In this document: piece by piece, positions 1,004-9,409 of the stretch
Position numbering within the stretch: the stretch's first letter is position 1
Layout of the letters: every line of letters starts with the position of its first letter
Virus genome (UHGV): UHGV-0116491
Reading direction: 5' to 3' (one strand)
From: a virus
Length of the DNA stretch: 10,946 nucleotides
The notes under the pieces: model-generated
Database searches by the model: none
Seen by the model: the letters and a program-made list of their open reading frames with translations, nothing else
Told to the model about the DNA's origin: nothing
Translations under genes and position numbers: made by a program

Positions 1004-1285
1004 TTAGTGATGTTCTTTGTCCTTCTGTTTGACTGTTCTGACCTGTTCCCACTCGATACGTCCTTCTTCTCGCCTTTTGTCTATGTATTCCGCAAGATCT
1101 TGAATATTGATGCAACGTTTTGCTTTTTGTGATGTGCCGATGCGATATGTTGGAACGGGCAACTTACAAGCGTTTGCTTTTGCTTCTGCCGTGGCTGGAC
1201 TCATACCAAAGTACTTTTGGCTAACTGCTGAGAGTTCAATGTTTGGGGTATTGAATTCAGCCATCAGTAAAAACAAGGTGTTCAT
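1004..1285 (-). CDS. PrtN-family / excisionase-like DNA-binding protein (93 aa)
   Basis: ATG at 1285 (MNTLFLLMAEF...) with GGAG 6 nt upstream; the track ORF starts at an upstream GTG (1312) that lacks an SD. C-terminal INIQDLAEYIDKRREEG matches my recollection of pyocin-activator PrtN-like proteins found next to prophage int/xis. Last gene of the leftward operon. Confidence 0.75.
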   Translation of the reverse strand: MNTLFLLMAEFNTPNIELSAVSQKYFGMSPATAEAKANACKLPVPTYRIGTSQKAKRCINIQDLAEYIDKRREEGRIEWEQVRTVKQKDKEHH

Positions 1286-1321
1286 AATTTTCTCCATCAA
1301 AACCGGCTGCACCCGGGAAAA

Positions 1322-4711: not shown

Positions 4712-5536
4712 TCAGGCGGTGAAAGTACCAATAAAGGTTTCTACTTTGCTGTCTTTGAATTTCTCAACAAGCAGATCACGAAATTCGTTAGCCATTTCTT
4801 CCTGCATCGCTTCCAGCTGAATAATGCGCAGAACCAGTACAGGACGATCGCCAGTGATAATGCTGAGGCGTAATTTAAACGGACGTTCTTTCAGGCCTTC
4901 AAACGGAACGCATTTAAATTCAAATGCCACTGGCATAATGTCTTTGGTCTTCGCTTCGACAGACTCCATCAGGGAGCGTTTGCCGCTGAAGTCATTGTCT
5001 TCAAAATCAGCGGTCTGGTTTGCTTCAATTGTGATTTTACGGACTGCCGCAGCCGCTTTGGTTGCCTGAATGGTGTCACCATTAGCATCAAAGCCCACAA
5101 GGTAGTCGGCCCAGTCTTCAATCCATTCTGCCAGTGACTTCTGGGAGTTACGCTCGCCATTAACAGACAACAGAGCAGAAAACGGTGCTGTCTTTTTCAG
5201 TTTGAGGGTGGCGGTGTTATCTGCGTGACCTGGTTCATCAATAGTACCCAGGTTAAGCACACTGACGGCTCGCATATTATCGGCATCGATAAAGCAGCGG
5301 GTGCCTTCATCTGCAAGATCTTTAGAATAACGGGTAAAGTCATCGATGCTGGCAGTGGAAAGCGCACCACGGAAACGGAAGCGATTTAAATTAAATTTTT
5401 CCAGATCATGAATGCGGAAATGCTCAGGCAATGCCACAGCATCGGCACCAATCTTACTGATAATTTCATTAACACCCTGAGCAGAAATAAGGGCATGGAT
5501 TTGATTAATTGCGGTTGCGTCTAAGTTCTGAGACAT
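4712..5536 (-). CDS. yfdQ: YfdQ-like protein (DUF2303 family as recalled), 274 aa
   Basis: ATG at 5536 with GAGGA upstream; length and position next to the HD-domain gene match CPS-53 YfdQ from memory; not verified. Confidence 0.75.
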
Positions 5537-5601: not shown

Positions 5602-5964
5602 TTAATGACCTGCTGCGCGGAGTTTTCCGTCAGGTTCACCGGCAAGAGTCAGTAATTGTCCCTGGTCTTCCTGCAGAATAGTCAGGCGACCACCGCGATT
5701 GACATACATCGGCGTTTCGGTGGTGTCTTCTTCGGAAATTTTCCCGCGGTTAGTCGGGCGAACATATGAGAGTTTGTGTTTTATTTTCACACGGTTCTCA
5801 TCAAACGGTTCGATTTCCAGGTTGAGCGAGACCTTACCTTTGGTTTTCGTGTTCATCACACCGGAAGCGACTTCACTGAGAACTGCGCCGATTTTGGTTT
5901 CAAATACGCCGCCGTCCAGCTCCCCGATAAATGCCTGCACATCAGTACTGCGTTCGCTAGCCAT
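5602..5964 (-). CDS. yfdP: YfdP-like hypothetical protein (120 aa), first gene of the early-left operon
   Basis: ATG at 5964 (MASERSTDVQAFIGELDGG...) with GAGGAG 8 nt upstream. The track's 197-aa version begins at an upstream start with no SD and runs through the large inverted repeat. Confidence 0.7.
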   Translation of the reverse strand: MASERSTDVQAFIGELDGGVFETKIGAVLSEVASGVMNTKTKGKVSLNLEIEPFDENRVKIKHKLSYVRPTNRGKISEEDTTETPMYVNRGGRLTILQEDQGQLLTLAGEPDGKLRAAGH

Positions 5965-6012
5965 TTTGCTGCTCCTCATCATATCGACCCTGCAAGGTCG
6001 GTTGGTTTCTCC

Positions 6013-6101
6013 ACAAAACAGAGAAGAACACCTGCGGTGGCAGCCGCCCGGATGGATTGGGTTATGAGCCCGTCGTCCGGTGATGCTCTTCTCTGTTTTG
6101 T
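6013..6101 (-). repeat. 15-bp perfect inverted repeat enclosing a 59-nt loop, forming a large hairpin just upstream of the yfdP-like RBS
   Basis: ACAAAACAGAGAAGA (6013-6027) and its exact reverse complement TCTTCTCTGTTTTGT (6087-6101). Possible RNase III or translational-control element. Confidence 0.6.
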
Positions 6102-6147
6102 AAAAAGAGCGGTACCAGCCGGAAGCAAGTGTACAAACTGGTACCGC
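6101..6147 (-). terminator. Intrinsic terminator inside the early-left leader (tL1-like)
   Basis: On the minus strand: 10-bp perfect stem (GCGGTACCAG / CTGGTACCGC; plus 6138-6147 and 6109-6118) with a 19-nt loop, followed by UCUUUUUA. Confidence 0.5.
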
Positions 6148-6564
6148 CAACGCAGTGGCTGTTGTGGTGGGGTTGTCACTTAGGCGTATGGTCAACCTGA
6201 CAATCCGGTGTCCTCAACGGGGAAAGAGTAACCCCGCCATACTTACCGCCGCGCCATTTCGCGGATTACCACAACGCTGAGAGCACTTAGCCAGTTACGG
6301 CACCACACTTTGTCGCGGTTCCATAAATGCCCTCATCGTTGCACCCTGGTCTCTTCCCAGGCGTCAAACCGAATCGCCACGCTGGTTAGGCGTCTTATCA
6401 GCATCCTCATTGACTTGCACATTCCGGCTACCTGGTTTGTTTGCCCGAGCAAGGAGTGGATTGTCCCCTTTAACGTCCCCAGACCGCTAACGACGCATGT
6501 GCCATACGCCGTGTTACAACCAAATTTTGTTAGTACCTTGTTTGTAGGTCTGGAGAGAAAGATA

Positions 6565-6615
6565 AAATGAAGTTGCGCATTATGCAAGTATTTTATTGCG
6601 AGATATGCAATTTGG
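6565..6615 (-). promoter_or_regulatory. OL operator pair and putative leftward early promoter (pL)
   Basis: Two 15-mers of the form TTGCG-N6-GCAA (6573-6587 TTGCGCATTATGCAA; 6596-6610 TTGCGAGATATGCAA) spaced 23 bp apart; the same form recurs at OR. TTGCAT and CATAAT-like hexamers lie on the minus strand, but exact -35/-10 spacing is unresolved. Confidence 0.5.
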
Positions 6616-6623
6616 TGGGTAAT

Positions 6624-6644
6624 GAAAAGCCACCTTCTGGTGGC
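6624..6644 (-). terminator. Intrinsic terminator downstream of the repressor gene
   Basis: On the minus strand: GCCACC-AGAA-GGTGGC followed by UUUUC, 22 nt after the repressor stop. Confidence 0.6.
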
Positions 6645-6666
6645 TAATTGATGTTGAGGTAGGGGG

Positions 6667-7359
6667 TTAATTGTGTCGCTTAAGGGTCTGTGACTGACTG
6701 ATTAAGACCTTTCCAAAGACCATAAACCGGTGTTCGTTTTCGCTGGTAATTCCCCATTCGCGGTAAATCTGATTATCAGAAATTACCAGCAGTTTATCAG
6801 GTATCATTTGCAGTCGTTTGACGTAAATTTTATCATCAAAACCAAATACATATATACCATCCCCATCAAACTGATTGATACTGATATCAACGAAGATGAG
6901 ATCTCCTGGCTCAATGGTTGGACACATACTGTCCCCACGAACGTTGATAACTTTAATGTGATTTGCTGGTCGTCCACCAAACATCGATACAGCATTATCA
7001 GTTCTGTATTCAATGGCATGAATCACATCAATGACATCACCGCCCTGGATAAGGCCATTTCCCGCACTGGCACTGACATCCAGCATTTCAATACGGAATA
7101 CATCCTTCACCTGCGCAACATCCTCACTAATACTGTTTTTACATACAGTATTACTTTTGAGGTCTGAGGTAAAGAGATCAGCAATATCAACACCTAAGCT
7201 CCTGGCAATATTACTCAGGGCTTGTTCAGTGAATTGTTTCTGCTTACCTGTTTCGAGGCGCGAGATATTCGCCGCATCCACTCCTATTGCTTCAGCGAGA
7301 TCGGCGATTTTCATGTTCTTCGCCTGGCGAAGTTGTCTGACTCGATTTCCTATGTTCAT
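6667..7359 (-). CDS. cI: CI-type prophage repressor: N-terminal XRE-family HTH plus C-terminal S24 (LexA-like) autopeptidase, 230 aa
   Basis: HTH region IADLAEAIGVDAANISRLETG; Ala-Gly cleavage site (SASAGNG); GDSM serine motif and downstream KRL lysine; divergent from a Cro-like gene. Confidence 0.9.
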   Translation of the reverse strand: MNIGNRVRQLRQAKNMKIADLAEAIGVDAANISRLETGKQKQFTEQALSNIARSLGVDIADLFTSDLKSNTVCKNSISEDVAQVKDVFRIEMLDVSASAGNGLIQGGDVIDVIHAIEYRTDNAVSMFGGRPANHIKVINVRGDSMCPTIEPGDLIFVDISINQFDGDGIYVFGFDDKIYVKRLQMIPDKLLVISDNQIYREWGITSENEHRFMVFGKVLISQSQTLKRHN

Positions 7360-7456
7360 GCGTTTATTACATTTCTTTATTGCGCGTTAAGCAAATCAAC
7401 TTGCGCAAAATATTTGCGTGAAATAATATGCTCATCACGCAATATGTGGAGGTTAT
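7360..7456. promoter_or_regulatory. OR region with divergent pRM (leftward) and pR (rightward) and operator-like repeats
   Basis: pR candidate: TTGCGC (7401-7406), 17 bp, TAATAT (7424-7429). pRM candidate on minus: TTGCTT (7394-7389), 17 bp, TGTAAT (7371-7366), ending 6 nt before the cI ATG with no SD. Operator-like TTGCGCGTTAAGCAA (7380-7394) and near-palindrome CGCAAAATATTTGCG (7404-7418). Confidence 0.55.
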
Positions 7457-7717
7457 ATGCAATCACCATTACGGAATGTGCGTAAGGCGCACGGATTTAC
7501 TTTGCAGCATGTTGCTGCGGGCGTTCAGGTCAATCCAGCGACGCTGAGTCGTATTGAAAGACTGGAACAAATTCCATCTATCGATCTTGCAGAACGTCTG
7601 GCCAATTTTTTTAAGGGTGAAATCAGCGAAATGCAGATTCTTTATCCGGCACGTTTTCAATCTAGCCAAAACCAGAATGGGTTTAAACCACAGGAACAGG
7701 AGGTAAGCCGTGGGTAA
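7457..7717 (+). CDS. cro: Cro-like HTH regulator (86 aa)
   Basis: ATG at 7457 with GGAGG 5 nt upstream; HTH region FTLQHVAAGVQVNPATLSRIER; divergent from the repressor gene. Confidence 0.8.
   Translation: MQSPLRNVRKAHGFTLQHVAAGVQVNPATLSRIERLEQIPSIDLAERLANFFKGEISEMQILYPARFQSSQNQNGFKPQEQEVSRG
7469..7669 (-). CDS. This -strand reading frame runs 201 nt (66 codons) without a stop; no product assigned
   Basis: An open frame of 201 nt on the - strand, long enough to be a gene and not just a gap between stop codons; no ribosome-binding site or similarity was checked. Confidence 0.3.
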   Translation of the reverse strand: MARLKTCRIKNLHFADFTLKKIGQTFCKIDRWNLFQSFNTTQRRWIDLNARSNMLQSKSVRLTHIP

Positions 7718-8261
7718 GCATCATTGGAAAGTGGAAAAACAACCCGAGTGGTACGTGAAAGCTGTCAGAAAAACTATCGCGGCATTGCCTAGGGGTTACG
7801 CTGAAGCTGCTGACTGGCTGGATGTAACAGAGAACGCTTTATTCAACCGCCTTCGTGCAGATGGCGATCAGATTTTCCCGCTGGGATGGGCAATGGTTTT
7901 ACAGCGCGCGGCTGGCACTCACTACATTGCGGATGCTGTCGCACAGTCTGCTGGTGGGGTGTTCGTATCGCTTCCTGAAATTGAGGAAGTAGAGAACGCC
8001 GATATAAACCAGCGCCTGCTGGAAGTCATCGAACAGATCGGGAATTACTCAAAGCAGATTCGTTCGGCAATCGAAGATGGGGTCGTGGAGCCACACGAGC
8101 AGACAGCAATTAATGATGAGTTGTATCTGTCAATTTCGAAGCTCCAGGAGCATGCAGCACTGGTCTACAAAATCTTCTGCGCTCCAGAAAAGAGTGACGC
8201 CCGCGAGTGTGCAGCTCCGGGCGTCGTGGCGTTTTGTGTCTGTGGAGAAACTAACGCATGA
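7710..8261 (+). CDS. CII-like phage regulatory protein (YdaT/CP76-like), 183 aa, GTG start
   Basis: GTG at 7710 with GGAGG 6 nt upstream, overlapping the Cro-like stop; position (third gene of the rightward operon) and size match CII/YdaT-type proteins; family assignment from memory. Confidence 0.65.
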   Translation: MGKHHWKVEKQPEWYVKAVRKTIAALPRGYAEAADWLDVTENALFNRLRADGDQIFPLGWAMVLQRAAGTHYIADAVAQSAGGVFVSLPEIEEVENADINQRLLEVIEQIGNYSKQIRSAIEDGVVEPHEQTAINDELYLSISKLQEHAALVYKIFCAPEKSDARECAAPGVVAFCVCGETNA

Positions 8262-8862
8262 ACAGTTTAACGGCAAATAACCGTTTGTCGCAACAGCTGG
8301 TGGTCAGTGTCGCTGAACACCTGTTGTTACGGCATGAATGCAGATTACCAAATCACTTGGCTGTAAGTAACCACAGAGAACTTTACCTGACTGTGGGGGG
8401 CGAGTTGTGCAGGAACTTAACCGCTGGTTTCGTGACGGAAGAGGGCTTTATGTCCATGTTATTCGTTGGGAGCCAGAAACACAGCGCGTTATCTATCTTC
8501 GCAAAGACTACCCGCATGAGTGCTTTAGTCCTTTGTGGAAATTCAGGCGTGATTTTGTTGAGTGTGAAGGACCACCAGCACATTGATTCTGCCATTCCGG
8601 GACGTTACACTGTTCAGGCACCTTATAAAGCGGGTGCCGGGCGTGGAAACCCGGAATTCACCAAAGCGCACAACCGCGCTCTTGCGGTTTTTTTGTGTAA
8701 TGAGCAGCATTACGCCCAAATTATGGTGGGGCGTGCAGGGCCAACTTCGGTTGGGCCGGGTTCTTTGGTGACCGGTATTTCCACCCCTGTACGTCTCACC
8801 ACCAATAAGGTCGTGGAAAGCCTTGGTGGTGAGTTATTAAAAATCACCAAAGAGGCTGCCAT
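8258..8862 (+). CDS. Unresolved ORF that overlaps the CII-like stop (ATGA) and runs in-frame into the Rha gene with no stop; either an N-terminal extension (full ORF 8258..9409, 383 aa) or a frameshifted / dual-coding segment
   Basis: ATG at 8258 with GGAG 10 nt upstream. Codon usage in 8585-8862 is strongly coding-like (all five Arg codons are CGT/CGC; ACC x6, GGT x5). No recognisable domain. Confidence 0.35.
8407..8586 (+). CDS. Alternative -1 frame ORF (59 aa, GTG start) inside the unresolved segment
   Basis: GTG at 8407, 6 nt after a G6 run; product VQELNRWFRDGRGLYVHVIRWEPETQRVIYLRKDYPHECFSPLWKFRRDFVECEGPPAH is protein-like, with 6 of 8 Arg codons CGT/CGC. Just under the ORF-track length threshold. 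Confidence 0.3.
   Translation: MQELNRWFRDGRGLYVHVIRWEPETQRVIYLRKDYPHECFSPLWKFRRDFVECEGPPAH
8672..8694 (+). terminator. Terminator-like hairpin plus T-tract inside the unresolved segment; contains a boxA-like CGCTCTT
   Basis: AACCGC-GCTCTT-GCGGTT followed by T5 (T7 in total); CGCTCTT at 8677-8683. Lies inside a frame that looks coding, so it may be coincidental. Confidence 0.3.
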
Positions 8863-8863
8863 C

Positions 8864-9409
8864 ATGGCTACGATCCCAACCCTCACTCAACCTGAAATTG
8901 CCATCGTTGATGGTCAGGCTGTTACTTCATCCTTGGCTGTTGCCAACTTCTTCTCCAAACGTCATGACGATGTACTGAAAAAGATCCGCACGCTTGAATG
9001 CTCTGCATCATTCACTTCCCGCAATTTTTCGGTGAGTGATTACACCGATTGCACAGGCCGCAAACTACCTTGCTATCAAATAACCCGCGACGGCTTTGCG
9101 TTTCTTGCTATGGGTTTCACGGGTAAACGTGCTGCCCAGTTCAAAGAGGCATACATCAATGCCTTTAACCAGATGGAGAAACAGCTTTCAAATCCCTCTG
9201 TACTGAGCGACGTTGCACATAACGCCAGCGTTCTCTATTCCTACATTTCATCAATTCATCAGGTCTGGCTGCAGCAGCTTTATCCTATGTTGGCAAAAGC
9301 CGAATCTCCGCTGGCTGTTAGCTTGTATGACTATATTAATGATGCTTCGGCGCTGGCCTGCCTCATAAATTTGTCGCTGAATCCTTCAGAGGTAAGGGGG
9401 CGCAAATGA
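8864..9409 (+). CDS. rha: Rha-family phage regulatory protein (181 aa)
   Basis: ATG at 8864 with AGAGG 8 nt upstream; N-terminal region (FFSKRHDDVLKKIRTLECSASFTSRNFSVSDYTDCTGRKLPCYQITRDGFAFLAMGFTGKRAAQFKEAYINAFNQME) matches the Rha domain pattern as I recall it, in its usual N-terminal position. Confidence 0.7.
   Translation: MATIPTLTQPEIAIVDGQAVTSSLAVANFFSKRHDDVLKKIRTLECSASFTSRNFSVSDYTDCTGRKLPCYQITRDGFAFLAMGFTGKRAAQFKEAYINAFNQMEKQLSNPSVLSDVAHNASVLYSYISSIHQVWLQQLYPMLAKAESPLAVSLYDYINDASALACLINLSLNPSEVRGRK

Follow-up and report, generated by a model that had tools for sequence, protein, structure and literature searches.

What does an early-left operon of a lambdoid prophage carry between its promoter and its first gene, when no N gene is found there? 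The question is raised by the leader at 5965-6570 of the window (the whole stretch of 10,946 nt that was analysed, virus genome UHGV-0116491). This leader lies between OL/pL and yfdP of an SfV/mEp460-type lambdoid prophage. The first-pass annotation had described it as ORF-free and highly structured, and had proposed either RNA-based antitermination or a phage non-coding RNA. The features that flank the leader and control it are as follows.

6667-7359, minus strand: repressor gene (cI-like)
6628..6645, minus strand: terminator hairpin of the repressor transcript, upstream of pL (consensus scan; 7-bp GC-rich stem, then a T-run)
6553..6610, minus strand: OL operators and probable pL (palindromes seen, promoter deduced)
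6000-5985, minus strand: small hairpin ahead of yfdP (read from the sequence)
5977-5972, minus strand: Shine-Dalgarno GAGGAG of yfdP (read from the sequence)
5964-5962, minus strand: start codon of yfdP (read from the sequence)
5602-5964, minus strand: yfdP, the first early-left gene (identity from RefSeq annotation and PHROGs)

An operator-like palindrome, TTGCGN6GCAA, is present twice at OL (6573-6587, 6596-6610); OR has it as well (7380-7394). The promoter pL probably consists of a -35 element TTGCAT (6587-6582) and a -10 element TATCTT (6564-6559) with a start near 6552; these hexamers are weak matches read by eye, and the consensus scan made no call there. In place of the small hairpin at 6000-5985, other genera have a different GC hairpin (CGGCGG...CCGCC). 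The tRNA scan of the window found none.

Several GenBank phage records place "hypothetical protein" features in this region. All the features behind the description of an ORF-free leader were found in place, and the six-frame ORFs at 6333..6587(-), 5979..6179(-) and 6310..6570(+) exist as listed. With 6155..6280(+) there are four candidates, and frameshifts or premature stops break all of them in diverged homologues, although the RNA motifs are retained there. Pfam gave zero matches for the leader ORFs and for the gp36/gp37 ORFs of mEp460. The leader has no conserved ORF. In a genome with 99.5% identity, PGAP, the RefSeq pipeline, left the interval from yfdP to the repressor without annotation. 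It is therefore very improbable that the leader is decayed or unrecognised protein-coding cargo of the kind annotated as gp36/gp37 in mEp460 and gp40 in cdtI. The GenBank features speak for such cargo, but ORFs of this kind have no Pfam match and none is called by PGAP, and the window's own candidates, which are the ORFs traced through homologues, are interrupted on both strands where the RNA motifs are kept. In addition, indels in the leader are not multiples of three, and conserved positions on the pL strand covary as base pairs, G-U included. The "hypothetical proteins" of this region in several phage records are probably spurious.

The pL strand of the whole leader folds at -233 kcal/mol with z -4.4 against shuffles, while the opposite strand has z -2.8; the leader is highly structured, as had been proposed. 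It is not a single RNA. Instead it is a mosaic whose five modules also occur apart from one another in other phages. Counted from pL, the order is B1, H, B2, the DicF-position hairpin and A, followed by yfdP.

6340..6531, minus strand: B1, a conserved pseudoknotted RNA (covariation, pairing statistics)
6270..6343, minus strand: H, a long hairpin GCAACGAUGAGGGCA...UGCUCUCAGCGUUG, imperfectly paired and variable at its tip (fold and conserved stem base)
6165..6263, minus strand: B2, the element preceding DicF-type small RNAs (homology to dicF loci)
6100..6148, minus strand: DicF-position hairpin and U-run (fold, position, cross-genus covariation)
6008..6106, minus strand: A, an element with a Y shape in the 5' untranslated region of yfdP (fold and conservation)

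In the 600-base leader, folded modules of non-coding RNA thus follow one another in a chain. The modules are conserved and covarying, which bears out the proposal of a phage non-coding RNA; covariation of paired bases in homologues was observed for B1 and A, and for B2 from few events. The locus had also been called a hotspot for accessory cargo, and this is supported: modules are exchanged among phages at precise junctions. In mEp460, for example, a different module takes the place of B2, and the exchange coincides exactly with the 7-mers GUUGUGG and CCACAAC, which are complementary. The leader would have been assembled from independently exchangeable modules. There was no match to the leader in Rfam 15 at gathering thresholds. 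At E<=10 in the window, B1, H, B2 and A gave only chance-level matches, as did P1, Uetakevirus, Evi and related loci at E<=1 and the other yfdP leaders at E<=0.5. The Rfam check, which covered the window and 17 related loci, thus returned nothing in the leader. Literature searches that covered yfdP, the ban operon of P1, SfV/mEp460 and structured RNAs of phages gave no description of B1, H, B2 or A.

The middle of the chain relates the leader to known small RNAs. Across 6286-6153, which comprises B2 and flanking sequence, identity is 87% to the bases immediately upstream of dicF in the Qin prophage of E. coli K-12 and 88% to phage Evi, where the homologous sequence lies upstream of a DicF of 76.4 bits. 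This part of the leader is also homologous to the "dicF-like region" of P1. The nested minimum-energy fold of B2 is not significant. A pseudoknot is proposed, with the following stems.

6242-6237/6191-6186, minus strand: B2 stem S1
6206-6198/6178-6170, minus strand: B2 stem S2

In the B2 alignment, 97.8% of the cells are paired, and four pairs change on both sides, from few independent events. Upstream of B2, H folds at -34.1 kcal/mol (z -4.2). Its stem base is conserved, and compensatory changes are seen by eye (GAGAGCA/UGCUCUC against AAGAGCA/UGCUCUU). In K-12 Qin, H is present upstream of B2 without B1; in Uetakevirus, it sits between B1 and a tRNA-Arg. H may be a punctuation between RNA modules and a probable target of RNase III. 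In K-12, the unannotated gap from ydfC to dicF, at 1,649,240-1,649,381 of NC_000913, accordingly holds H and B2 as additional conserved RNAs, and the description of this well-studied locus is incomplete.

Directly after B2, bases 6148-6136 pair with 6120-6108 in a 13-bp hairpin of -21.2 kcal/mol (z -4.0). It is directly followed by CUUUUUAC at 6107-6100. Its arms, GGCGGUACCAG...CUGGUACCGC, and the following UCUUUUU reproduce the GGCGG...CCGCC and U-run that end DicF. The context is also that of DicF: right after B2, in a repressor-controlled early operon, and ahead of early genes, as seen when the window is aligned with Evi, pPE4, P1 and K-12 Qin. In Evi, in Qin and in more than 100 viral contigs, DicF has the same place behind B2 as this hairpin. 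At this place a graded series of hairpins leads from canonical DicF to the version in the window, and the stem covaries across genera. The Rfam DicF model (RF00039; gathering threshold 48 bits) had no match on 6085-6175 at E<=10, nor any on 5800-6700, while a Leclercia homologue at the same position scored 28.4 bits against it. Judged by eye, CGGA and AAACU, which match the ftsZ ribosome-binding site, are retained, with an additional insert between them. The anti-ftsZ duplex energy is similar for DicF (z -1.35) and the window (-1.4), and unrestricted folding separates neither from shuffles. In the best reading, a diverged small RNA of the DicF type ends in this hairpin, which doubles as an intrinsic terminator; the DicF-type assignment is based on the position, the conserved 5' flank and the intermediate homologues.

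In the dicBF operon, termination yields the 53-nt DicF, and RNase III cleavage of the read-through mRNA yields a 72-nt form (PMC5069750). The terminator of the small RNA is leaky there, and both RNase III and RNase E take part in processing (PMC5069750). RNase E makes the 5' end of DicF, and RNase III an alternative 3' end. By analogy, leaky termination and processing of the dicBF kind are inferred at this locus. The first-pass annotation had placed a strong intrinsic terminator at 6101-6147, which the transcript must cross. The hairpin and its U-run are indeed present, but as a barrier the claim is weakened, since the DicF place of the cassette is read through in Qin.

The alternative is that the hairpin at 6148-6100 stops polymerase efficiently, so that pL makes non-coding RNA only and yfdP and the following genes depend on a separate promoter or an unknown factor. 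The 13-bp stem, the six U among the next eight bases, and the conservation of the hairpin with its UUUUUAC tail upstream of yfdP across genera are consistent with this. However, no promoter-like site was found on the minus strand in a scan of 6100-5965, where such a separate promoter was looked for. A loop as large as this one (15 to 19 nt) should weaken termination, the stem of the conserved module A takes up the sequence directly past the U-run, and the homologous DicF terminator of Qin is read through (PMC5069750). An efficient stop is thus unlikely.

Module A folds at -51.2 kcal/mol (z -6.5).

6106-6082/6032-6008, minus strand: basal stem of A, 25 bp

The basal stem swallows the U-run of the terminator hairpin, and the two inner arms bear the conserved loop GGGCUCAUAACCCAAUCC. 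Compensatory changes were observed in 12 of the 33 predicted pairs. At least 12 enterobacterial genera have A ahead of yfdP, mostly with 78-88% DNA identity (about 70% in the most distant), while the YfdP protein is only 57-76% identical. Duplexes of about 20 or more near-continuous base pairs are of the size cut by RNase III; A has 25 consecutive pairs, and H has about 30 with small interruptions. Both H and A are inferred to be candidate RNase III sites.

It is likely, with a probability of roughly 0.6, that this leader acts as a polycistronic precursor, resembling the dicBF operon of Qin, from which non-coding RNAs are made. Upon removal of the repressor, pL would transcribe this precursor. 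Polymerase stopping at the hairpin and U-run would create the 3' end of the DicF-type small RNA. With read-through, the U-run and the downstream sequence would form the 25-bp basal stem of A, and the transcript would serve as mRNA for the downstream genes. RNase III cuts in the long duplexes of H and A would release B1; the same cuts would free a unit of B2 and the small RNA and leave a trimmed yfdP mRNA.

The first module, B1, is widespread. Its elements are listed below.

6511-6504/6498-6491, minus strand: helix P1
6487-6479/6435-6427, minus strand: helix P2, which encloses a variable hairpin
6432-6414, minus strand: near-invariant 19-mer GGUAGCCGGAAUGUGCAAG
6393-6390/6382-6379, minus strand: helix P4
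6387-6384 with 6370-6367, minus strand: pseudoknot
6361-6357/6349-6345, minus strand: helix P5, with the loop GAAGAGA

In an alignment of 48 representatives with less than 93% identity, 96.1% of the cells are paired and 13 of the 29 pairs show changes on both sides. The covariation score is 0.249. Shuffles give 0.112, none of 500 attaining the observed value, and the score of slid controls does not exceed 0.064. The strand was assigned from G-U pairs. Two closely related Kosakonia loci differ by a double change in B1 from A-U to C-G. RNAalifold gave a long-range pairing GCACAU/AUGUGC as an alternative to P1. Both of its strands are invariant, even in a differently anchored sample; the G-C to A-U covariation at 6507/6495 favours the local P1 hairpin instead. 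Of 134 copies retrieved via a different anchor, 128 have an intact 19-mer.

B1 was found in 1833 of 5426 complete E. coli genomes (34%), annotated in none, and also in P1, D6 and Uetakevirus phages. An exact 18-mer and the HMM recover B1 members among the loci examined, and the HMM search of the 10.9-kb window found a single copy. Searching the literature by B1 sequence strings led to no paper. B1 is a widespread RNA that is absent from Rfam and for which no description was found in the literature. In 48 of 134 contexts, a same-strand tRNA adjoins B1, which fits a discrete RNA freed by processing. In several contigs, B1 begins at +1 of a good sigma-70 promoter. We lean towards B1 being a stable early-lytic RNA with its own role, freed by processing. 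Considering the invariance of the 19-mer and the lack of its own terminator in most contexts, a role in cis fits at least as well as a free RNA. Tentatively, B1 may even be a new class of functional phage RNA whose invariant core binds a conserved host machine. If so, it could be a put-independent RNA through which polymerase resists termination in lambdoid phages without N and in P1-like and epsilon15-like phages, or, alternatively, a trans-acting decoy or inhibitor freed beside phage tRNAs. In that case, early phage operons would have a modular "RNA cargo" system, with the H hairpins and the GUUGUGG/CCACAAC repeats as its junctions.

The multi-helix core with a pseudoknot, invariant junctions and variable peripheral stems is typical of aptamers and ribozymes, and B1 is always on the 5' side of a transcription unit. 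These features would suit a riboswitch-like sensor of a ligand or factor, or a ribozyme, that controls the fate of the downstream transcript. Such a function is improbable, more so than an efficient stop at the hairpin. No consistent expression platform follows B1; the next element is H, a tRNA, the ribosome-binding site of ban or the terminator of a convergent gene. The downstream genes have no common function, and Rfam riboswitch and ribozyme families remained unmatched even at permissive E-values.

The lack of N was the starting point for the proposal of RNA-based antitermination. As had been stated, there is no N-like antiterminator gene, either in the leader or among the ten proteins of the leftward operon scanned in the window; N is likewise absent from SfII, SfV and SfIV (PMC3851460). 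A boxA-like sequence, CGCUCUUUUUAC, is present at 6111-6100, where homologues read GCAAUUUUUUAC or GCCCCUUUUUAC. The boxA/nut interpretation was rejected, as the sequence is not conserved in homologues. Besides 6148-6100, the leftward operon within the window contains no second convincing intrinsic terminator. With only one convincing terminator in the operon, processive antitermination is not required for its expression.

B1 might nevertheless be a put-like cis-acting RNA, folded at the 5' end of the pL transcript, which stays with polymerase and modifies it. It would carry polymerase past the DicF-type terminator, terminators of convergent cargo and Rho sites in the long untranslated leader. 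This is possible though doubtful, somewhat below the rating given to a new class of RNA. B1 is the first element past pL, about 20-25 nt beyond the predicted start, and the terminator hairpin follows about 380 nt further on, which is the location of put; at several other prophages B1 is at promoter +1. It does not bring its own terminator, and the transcription unit always continues beyond it. The near-invariant 19-mer suggests a conserved macromolecular partner. The phage group lacks N (PMC3851460), and specialists guessed put-like antitermination for a related N-less phage in 2025 (PMC12315714). The P1 hairpin of the window type and stem I of put both have ACGGCG...CAUGCGUCG, and the CAUG of stem I holds a base that contacts the zinc-binding domain of polymerase beta' (PMC9378689).

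However, the likeness to putL/putR of HK022 and putL of HK639 is within the range of shuffles (z -1.0 to +2.4); the best put alignment was reached by 18 of 1000 dinucleotide shuffles. The shared 9-mer is altered in most B1 variants. The essential G35 of put is not conserved, and the junction after P1 reads UUA or CA instead of the GG (G35/G36) between the two stems of put. B1 measures about 190 nt and has additional helices as well as a pseudoknot, compared with about 70 nt and two stems in put. The B1 HMM gave only chance matches in HK022 and HK639; one in HK022 was discarded, as it falls inside the nun coding sequence. No second copy is present downstream of pR in the window, although HK639 is annotated with a single putL-like site and a pR copy is thus not universal to put. 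In P1, B1 is about 2.3 kb into the ban operon behind a tRNA, and in Uetakevirus it heads a very short unit. Many yfdP leaders are without B1, and there is one real terminator alone to cross. Of the earlier proposal of RNA-based antitermination, the need for it falls away and the put likeness fails against shuffles, while a role of B1 as an RNA-based antiterminator is possible. The preferred reading is still that of an RNA-producing leader; a new antitermination device in it is unproven.

The SfV-, mEp460- and LLS-type lambdoid phages have no N, cII or cIII, and the mode of their early-left operon now becomes testable. Their leader is a stack of conserved RNAs around a DicF-type cassette, with exact coordinates. 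Within it, B1 is a highly constrained pseudoknotted RNA of a third of complete E. coli genomes and of P1, unannotated everywhere examined.

Among known systems, lambda N/nutL has the same arrangement of a leader between pL and the first early-left genes. The lambda early-left leader contains an RNase III site, to which H and A would correspond here as candidate sites. In contrast to lambda, the window has no N-like ORF and no conserved boxA.

The put sites of HK022 and HK639 share with B1 a promoter-proximal place at pL, in lambdoid phages that lack N. Put and B1 alike are folded RNAs that act, or in the case of B1 possibly act, ahead of terminators, and P1 of the window type has the 5-bp CGGCG/CGUCG helix and the CAUG of stem I. 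Unlike put, B1 has five helices and a pseudoknot, with no significant sequence similarity, and it adjoins tRNAs in P1 and Uetakevirus, where put-like logic fails.

The leader of the P1 ban operon is a further such system. It is under repressor control, contains B2 with a dicF-like hairpin (225-390 of locus L034) and B1 (2496-2689 of the same locus), and has interleaved tRNA genes. It differs in that B2 comes first and B1 follows about 2.3 kb downstream, after tRNA-Ile and just before ban, in the trnI-ban spacer at 71,005-71,200 of AF234172, without H after it and without module A.

The system on which the best reading is modelled is dicBF of Qin. The window hairpin differs from DicF in its loop and 3' half, with no score against the DicF model, and the contiguous anti-ftsZ sequence of DicF is interrupted in it. 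The upstream partner is B1 in the window and the ydfABC genes in Qin, and the downstream partners are module A and yfdP in the window and dicB in Qin. Both are repressor-controlled early operons of lambdoid prophages, with H and B2 (87% identity to K-12) immediately ahead of the small-RNA position, and both have a GGCGG...CCGCC hairpin with a U-run that is read through in Qin, and would be read through here, to reach the downstream genes.

The window belongs to a lambdoid E. coli prophage of the SfV/mEp460/cdtI type and represents its immunity and early region. Over 761 bases around the leader (5965-6570, minus strand), PhiR40_1, PhiR55_1, and many E. coli chromosomes are 99% identical to it. 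A RefSeq genome of 99.5% identity has the cI-like repressor, an unannotated gap, and then yfdP, yfdQ, and yfdR, all on one strand. Every item described in the first-pass annotation, namely the ORFs, the repressor terminator, the OL/pL region, and the terminator hairpin of the leader, was present in the sequence.

Genes and control sites in the window
7457-7717, plus strand: cro-like gene
7380-7394: OR, the same TTGCGN6GCAA palindrome as at OL
6667-7359, minus strand: cI-like repressor
6645-6628, minus strand: terminator of the repressor transcript, a hairpin and T-run, from the consensus scan
6573-6587 and 6596-6610: OL, two copies of the operator-like palindrome TTGCGN6GCAA
5602-5964, minus strand: yfdP
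4712-5536, minus strand: yfdQ
1004-1312, minus strand: excisionase gene, adjoining a hairpin at 975-1000

The putative pL (TTGCAT at 6587-6582 and TATCTT at 6564-6559, separated by 17 nt, with a start near 6552) was placed by eye; the consensus scan made no call. The hairpin at 975-1000 (GAAAACCCGCCTGAAGGCGGGTTTTT) is strong, GC-rich, and flanked on either side by A/T runs. It separates the excisionase gene from the plus-strand ORFs and probably ends the leftward operon as a bidirectional terminator. On the plus strand, Rfam matches to isrK (8618-8694, 67 bits) and C4 antisense RNA (8719-8806, 83.6 bits) fall inside a mechanically listed 383-aa ORF, 8258-9409. The region 8618-8806 looks like a P1 immI/Gifsy IsrK-type small-RNA control region 5' of a Rha/antirepressor gene. 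Because PGAP starts this gene further downstream, the long ORF is probably over-called.

The three candidate ORFs in the leader have no Pfam match. Frameshifts of -2, -1, or +1 and early stops destroy them in diverged homologues in which every RNA motif is retained, a pattern that supports the earlier suggestion that the leader is a non-coding RNA. On the pL strand, the predicted fold of the entire leader has a free energy of -233 kcal/mol (z -4.4); the other strand has a z of -2.8. Comparison with other loci revealed a mosaic whose modules travel separately. No earlier description of the modules, here named B1, H, B2, and A, as defined RNA elements was found in the literature.

Modules of the leader, in order from pL
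6531-6340, minus strand: B1, conserved structured RNA
6343-6270, minus strand: H, long hairpin (-34.1 kcal/mol, z -4.2)
6263-6165, minus strand: B2
6148-6136 paired with 6120-6108, minus strand: hairpin and U-run at the DicF position (13 bp, -21.2 kcal/mol, z -4.0), with CUUUUUAC next
6106-6008, minus strand: A (-51.2 kcal/mol, z -6.5)

Sequence comparison gives good support for B1 as a structured RNA, and its distribution is very wide. Long near-invariant blocks (UAUGGCACAUG, AGCGGUCYGG, GGUAGCCGGAAUGUGCAAG, GUGGCGAUNNGGUGUGAC, and the GGAAGAG loop) have variable stems between them. Among 48 representatives of less than 93% identity, the structure of helices P1, P2, and P4, a pseudoknot, and helix P5 is 96.1% paired, and both partners have changed in 13 of 29 pairs. 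Covariation scores 0.249, versus 0.112 for shuffles (none of 500 reaching 0.249) and at most 0.064 for slid controls. The pseudoknot, between the P4 loop and GGUGUGA (6387-6384 with 6370-6367), is supported by a double change from A-U to C-G, which also distinguishes two closely related Kosakonia loci. The frequent G-U pairs indicate that the B1 strand is the pL strand. Of 134 copies sampled by means of the 5' motif, 128 have an intact 19-mer (6432-6414 in the window) and five have one substitution in it; the remaining one is a truncated B1. As this sample was anchored independently, the invariance of the 19-mer is not a sampling artefact.

B1 is present in 1833 of 5426 complete E. coli genomes and annotated in none. 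It matched no Rfam family, and literature searches by sequence strings found no description of it. In P1, P7, and D6, B1 lies between tRNA-Ile and ban, and in Uetakevirus phages directly 5' of tRNA-Arg. Kosakonia and Phytobacter prophages also carry it. A same-strand tRNA adjoins B1 in 48 of 134 contexts, and B1 begins at +1 of a good sigma-70 promoter in several prophages. B1 is worth experimental work.

B2 and its flanks (6286-6153) show 87% identity to the stretch immediately 5' of dicF in the Qin prophage of E. coli K-12, where the homologue sits between ydfC and dicF in a gap of 340 nt that carries no annotation. The same gap holds conserved H and B2 (2600-2875 in the Qin comparison locus L166; about 1,649,100-1,649,375 in NC_000913). 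In phage Evi, the sequence 5' of a 76-bit DicF is 88% identical to B2 with its flanks, and the annotated "dicF-like region" in the ban operon leader of phage P1 is a B2 homologue. The proposed B2 pseudoknot (S1, 6242-6237/6191-6186; S2, 6206-6198/6178-6170) is 97.8% paired and has four compensated pairs, with few events behind them.

The position after B2 is occupied by canonical DicF or one of several different-loop variants in at least 120 viral contigs. In other genera, 5' of yfdP, the hairpin stem covaries and the UUUUUAC tail is retained. A Leclercia copy at the DicF position scores 28.4 bits against Rfam DicF; the window hairpin received no score from this model. The series of hairpins, the covarying stem with its tail, and the Leclercia score suggest that what had been annotated as a terminator forms the 3' terminus of a diverged unit of DicF type, which falls outside RF00039 as defined.

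In Rac-type phages, STnc100 matches of 34-39 bits, below the gathering score of 47, lie directly 3' of DicF and overlap the beginning of kil (L039 2686-2871; L037 2766-2950). L037 is vB_Apl-pPE4 (PP818812), deposited as infecting Actinobacillus. It carries a Rac/Qin-type DicA-B2-DicF-kil arrangement that is ~85% identical to E. coli prophages at the DNA level, and the host assignment or purity of the record may be in question.

H has a conserved base and a variable tip. It recurs as punctuation, at the B1/tRNA-Arg junction of Uetakevirus and, without any B1, 5' of B2 in Qin. A is tied to yfdP, being conserved 5' of this gene in at least 12 enterobacterial genera. Its basal stem of 25 bp takes in the U-run of the terminator, and 12 of its 33 predicted pairs show compensatory changes. 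The DNA identity of A is 78-88% in most genera and ~70% in the most distant, against only 57-76% for the YfdP protein.

In mEp460, an unrelated module occupies the place of B2, exactly between GUUGUGG, with which H ends, and CCACAAC. The two 7-mers, which are complementary, could form a closing stem or mark a recombination junction. They bracket the cargo after H at 6270-6264 and 6168-6162 in the window and at about 3340-3190 in mEp460 (L002), where the module is ~150 nt. In other yfdP leaders, tRNAs or further conserved elements replace B1 and B2. A prophage of Phytobacter ursingii (L018) has a tRNA at 2723-2796 (Rfam, 52.8 bits; tRNA-Ile by ARAGORN) in its pL leader, with B1 on one side and the DicF-type hairpin on the other, where B2 lies in the window. 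The yfdP-type leaders without B1 contain another conserved promoter-proximal element, ACAGCGAACAGGCAGGACGCCCACGAAGUAGCCGCCGGUGGCAUAUGAAUGACCGGAUGAUUCG (about 2575-2650 in comparison locus L009, and the same relative place in L026, L029, and L031). It matches no Rfam family, and in L009 and L026 a long GC-rich, structured-looking region lies 3' of it. The yfdP gene of K-12 CPS-53 (L165 7248-7604) has lost B1, H, B2, and A; the match to the window is limited to the last ~19 nt before the yfdP start, and further upstream the sequence is repetitive, with repeats of GACGGGTCAGATTTTGA. Enterobacterial yfdP prophage sequences also occur in assemblies labelled Fredinandcohnia, Martelella, and Chryseobacterium, three on short contigs of 240 to 4,233 bases (L013, L016, and L017) and one on a 420-kb contig (L021). 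They are probably due to contamination or mislabelling.

No N-like ORF was found in the leader, as the first-pass annotation had stated, or among the leftward-operon genes in the window, and SfII, SfV, and SfIV are likewise reported to be without N, cII, and cIII (PMC3851460). A boxA-like string was discarded, being unconserved in homologues. On the pL strand, the leftward operon within the window contains no second convincing intrinsic terminator. With a single terminator to cross, partial read-through as in dicBF suffices, and the unrecognised antitermination mechanism proposed earlier is not needed.

The window-type P1 hairpin of B1 has ACGGCG...CAUGCGUCG in common with stem I of putL, a cis-acting antiterminator RNA of HK022 and HK639, and the P5 loop GGAAGAG is reminiscent of the upper part of stem II in HK639 putL. 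The identification of B1 as a put RNA was rejected. The B1 HMM found nothing in HK022 or HK639, and gapped alignments between B1 and put gave z of -1.0 to +2.4 against dinucleotide shuffles, the best case being reached by 18 of 1000. The shared 9-mer is altered in most B1 variants, the essential G35 of put is absent from B1, and the architectures differ. It is also unlikely that B1 works in a put-like way: its position directly after pL, its invariant core, and the lack of a terminator of its own would suit such a role, but B1 lies inside the ban operon in phage P1, heads a very short unit in Uetakevirus, and is missing from many yfdP leaders.

From the anatomy and homology of the modules, we infer a dicBF-type logic for the leader. 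The pL transcript would consist of B1, H, B2, and the small-RNA hairpin, at which part of the polymerases would stop. The remaining polymerases would read on, and the U-run would then be locked in the 25-bp stem of A. The predicted duplexes of H and A are of RNase III size, and cutting would divide the transcript into B1, B2 with the small-RNA hairpin, and the yfdP mRNA. Among documented systems, the dicBF operon of Qin comes closest; in it, termination at the DicF hairpin yields a 53-nt small RNA and RNase III cleavage of the read-through mRNA yields a 72-nt form, the 5' end being generated by RNase E (PMC5069750).
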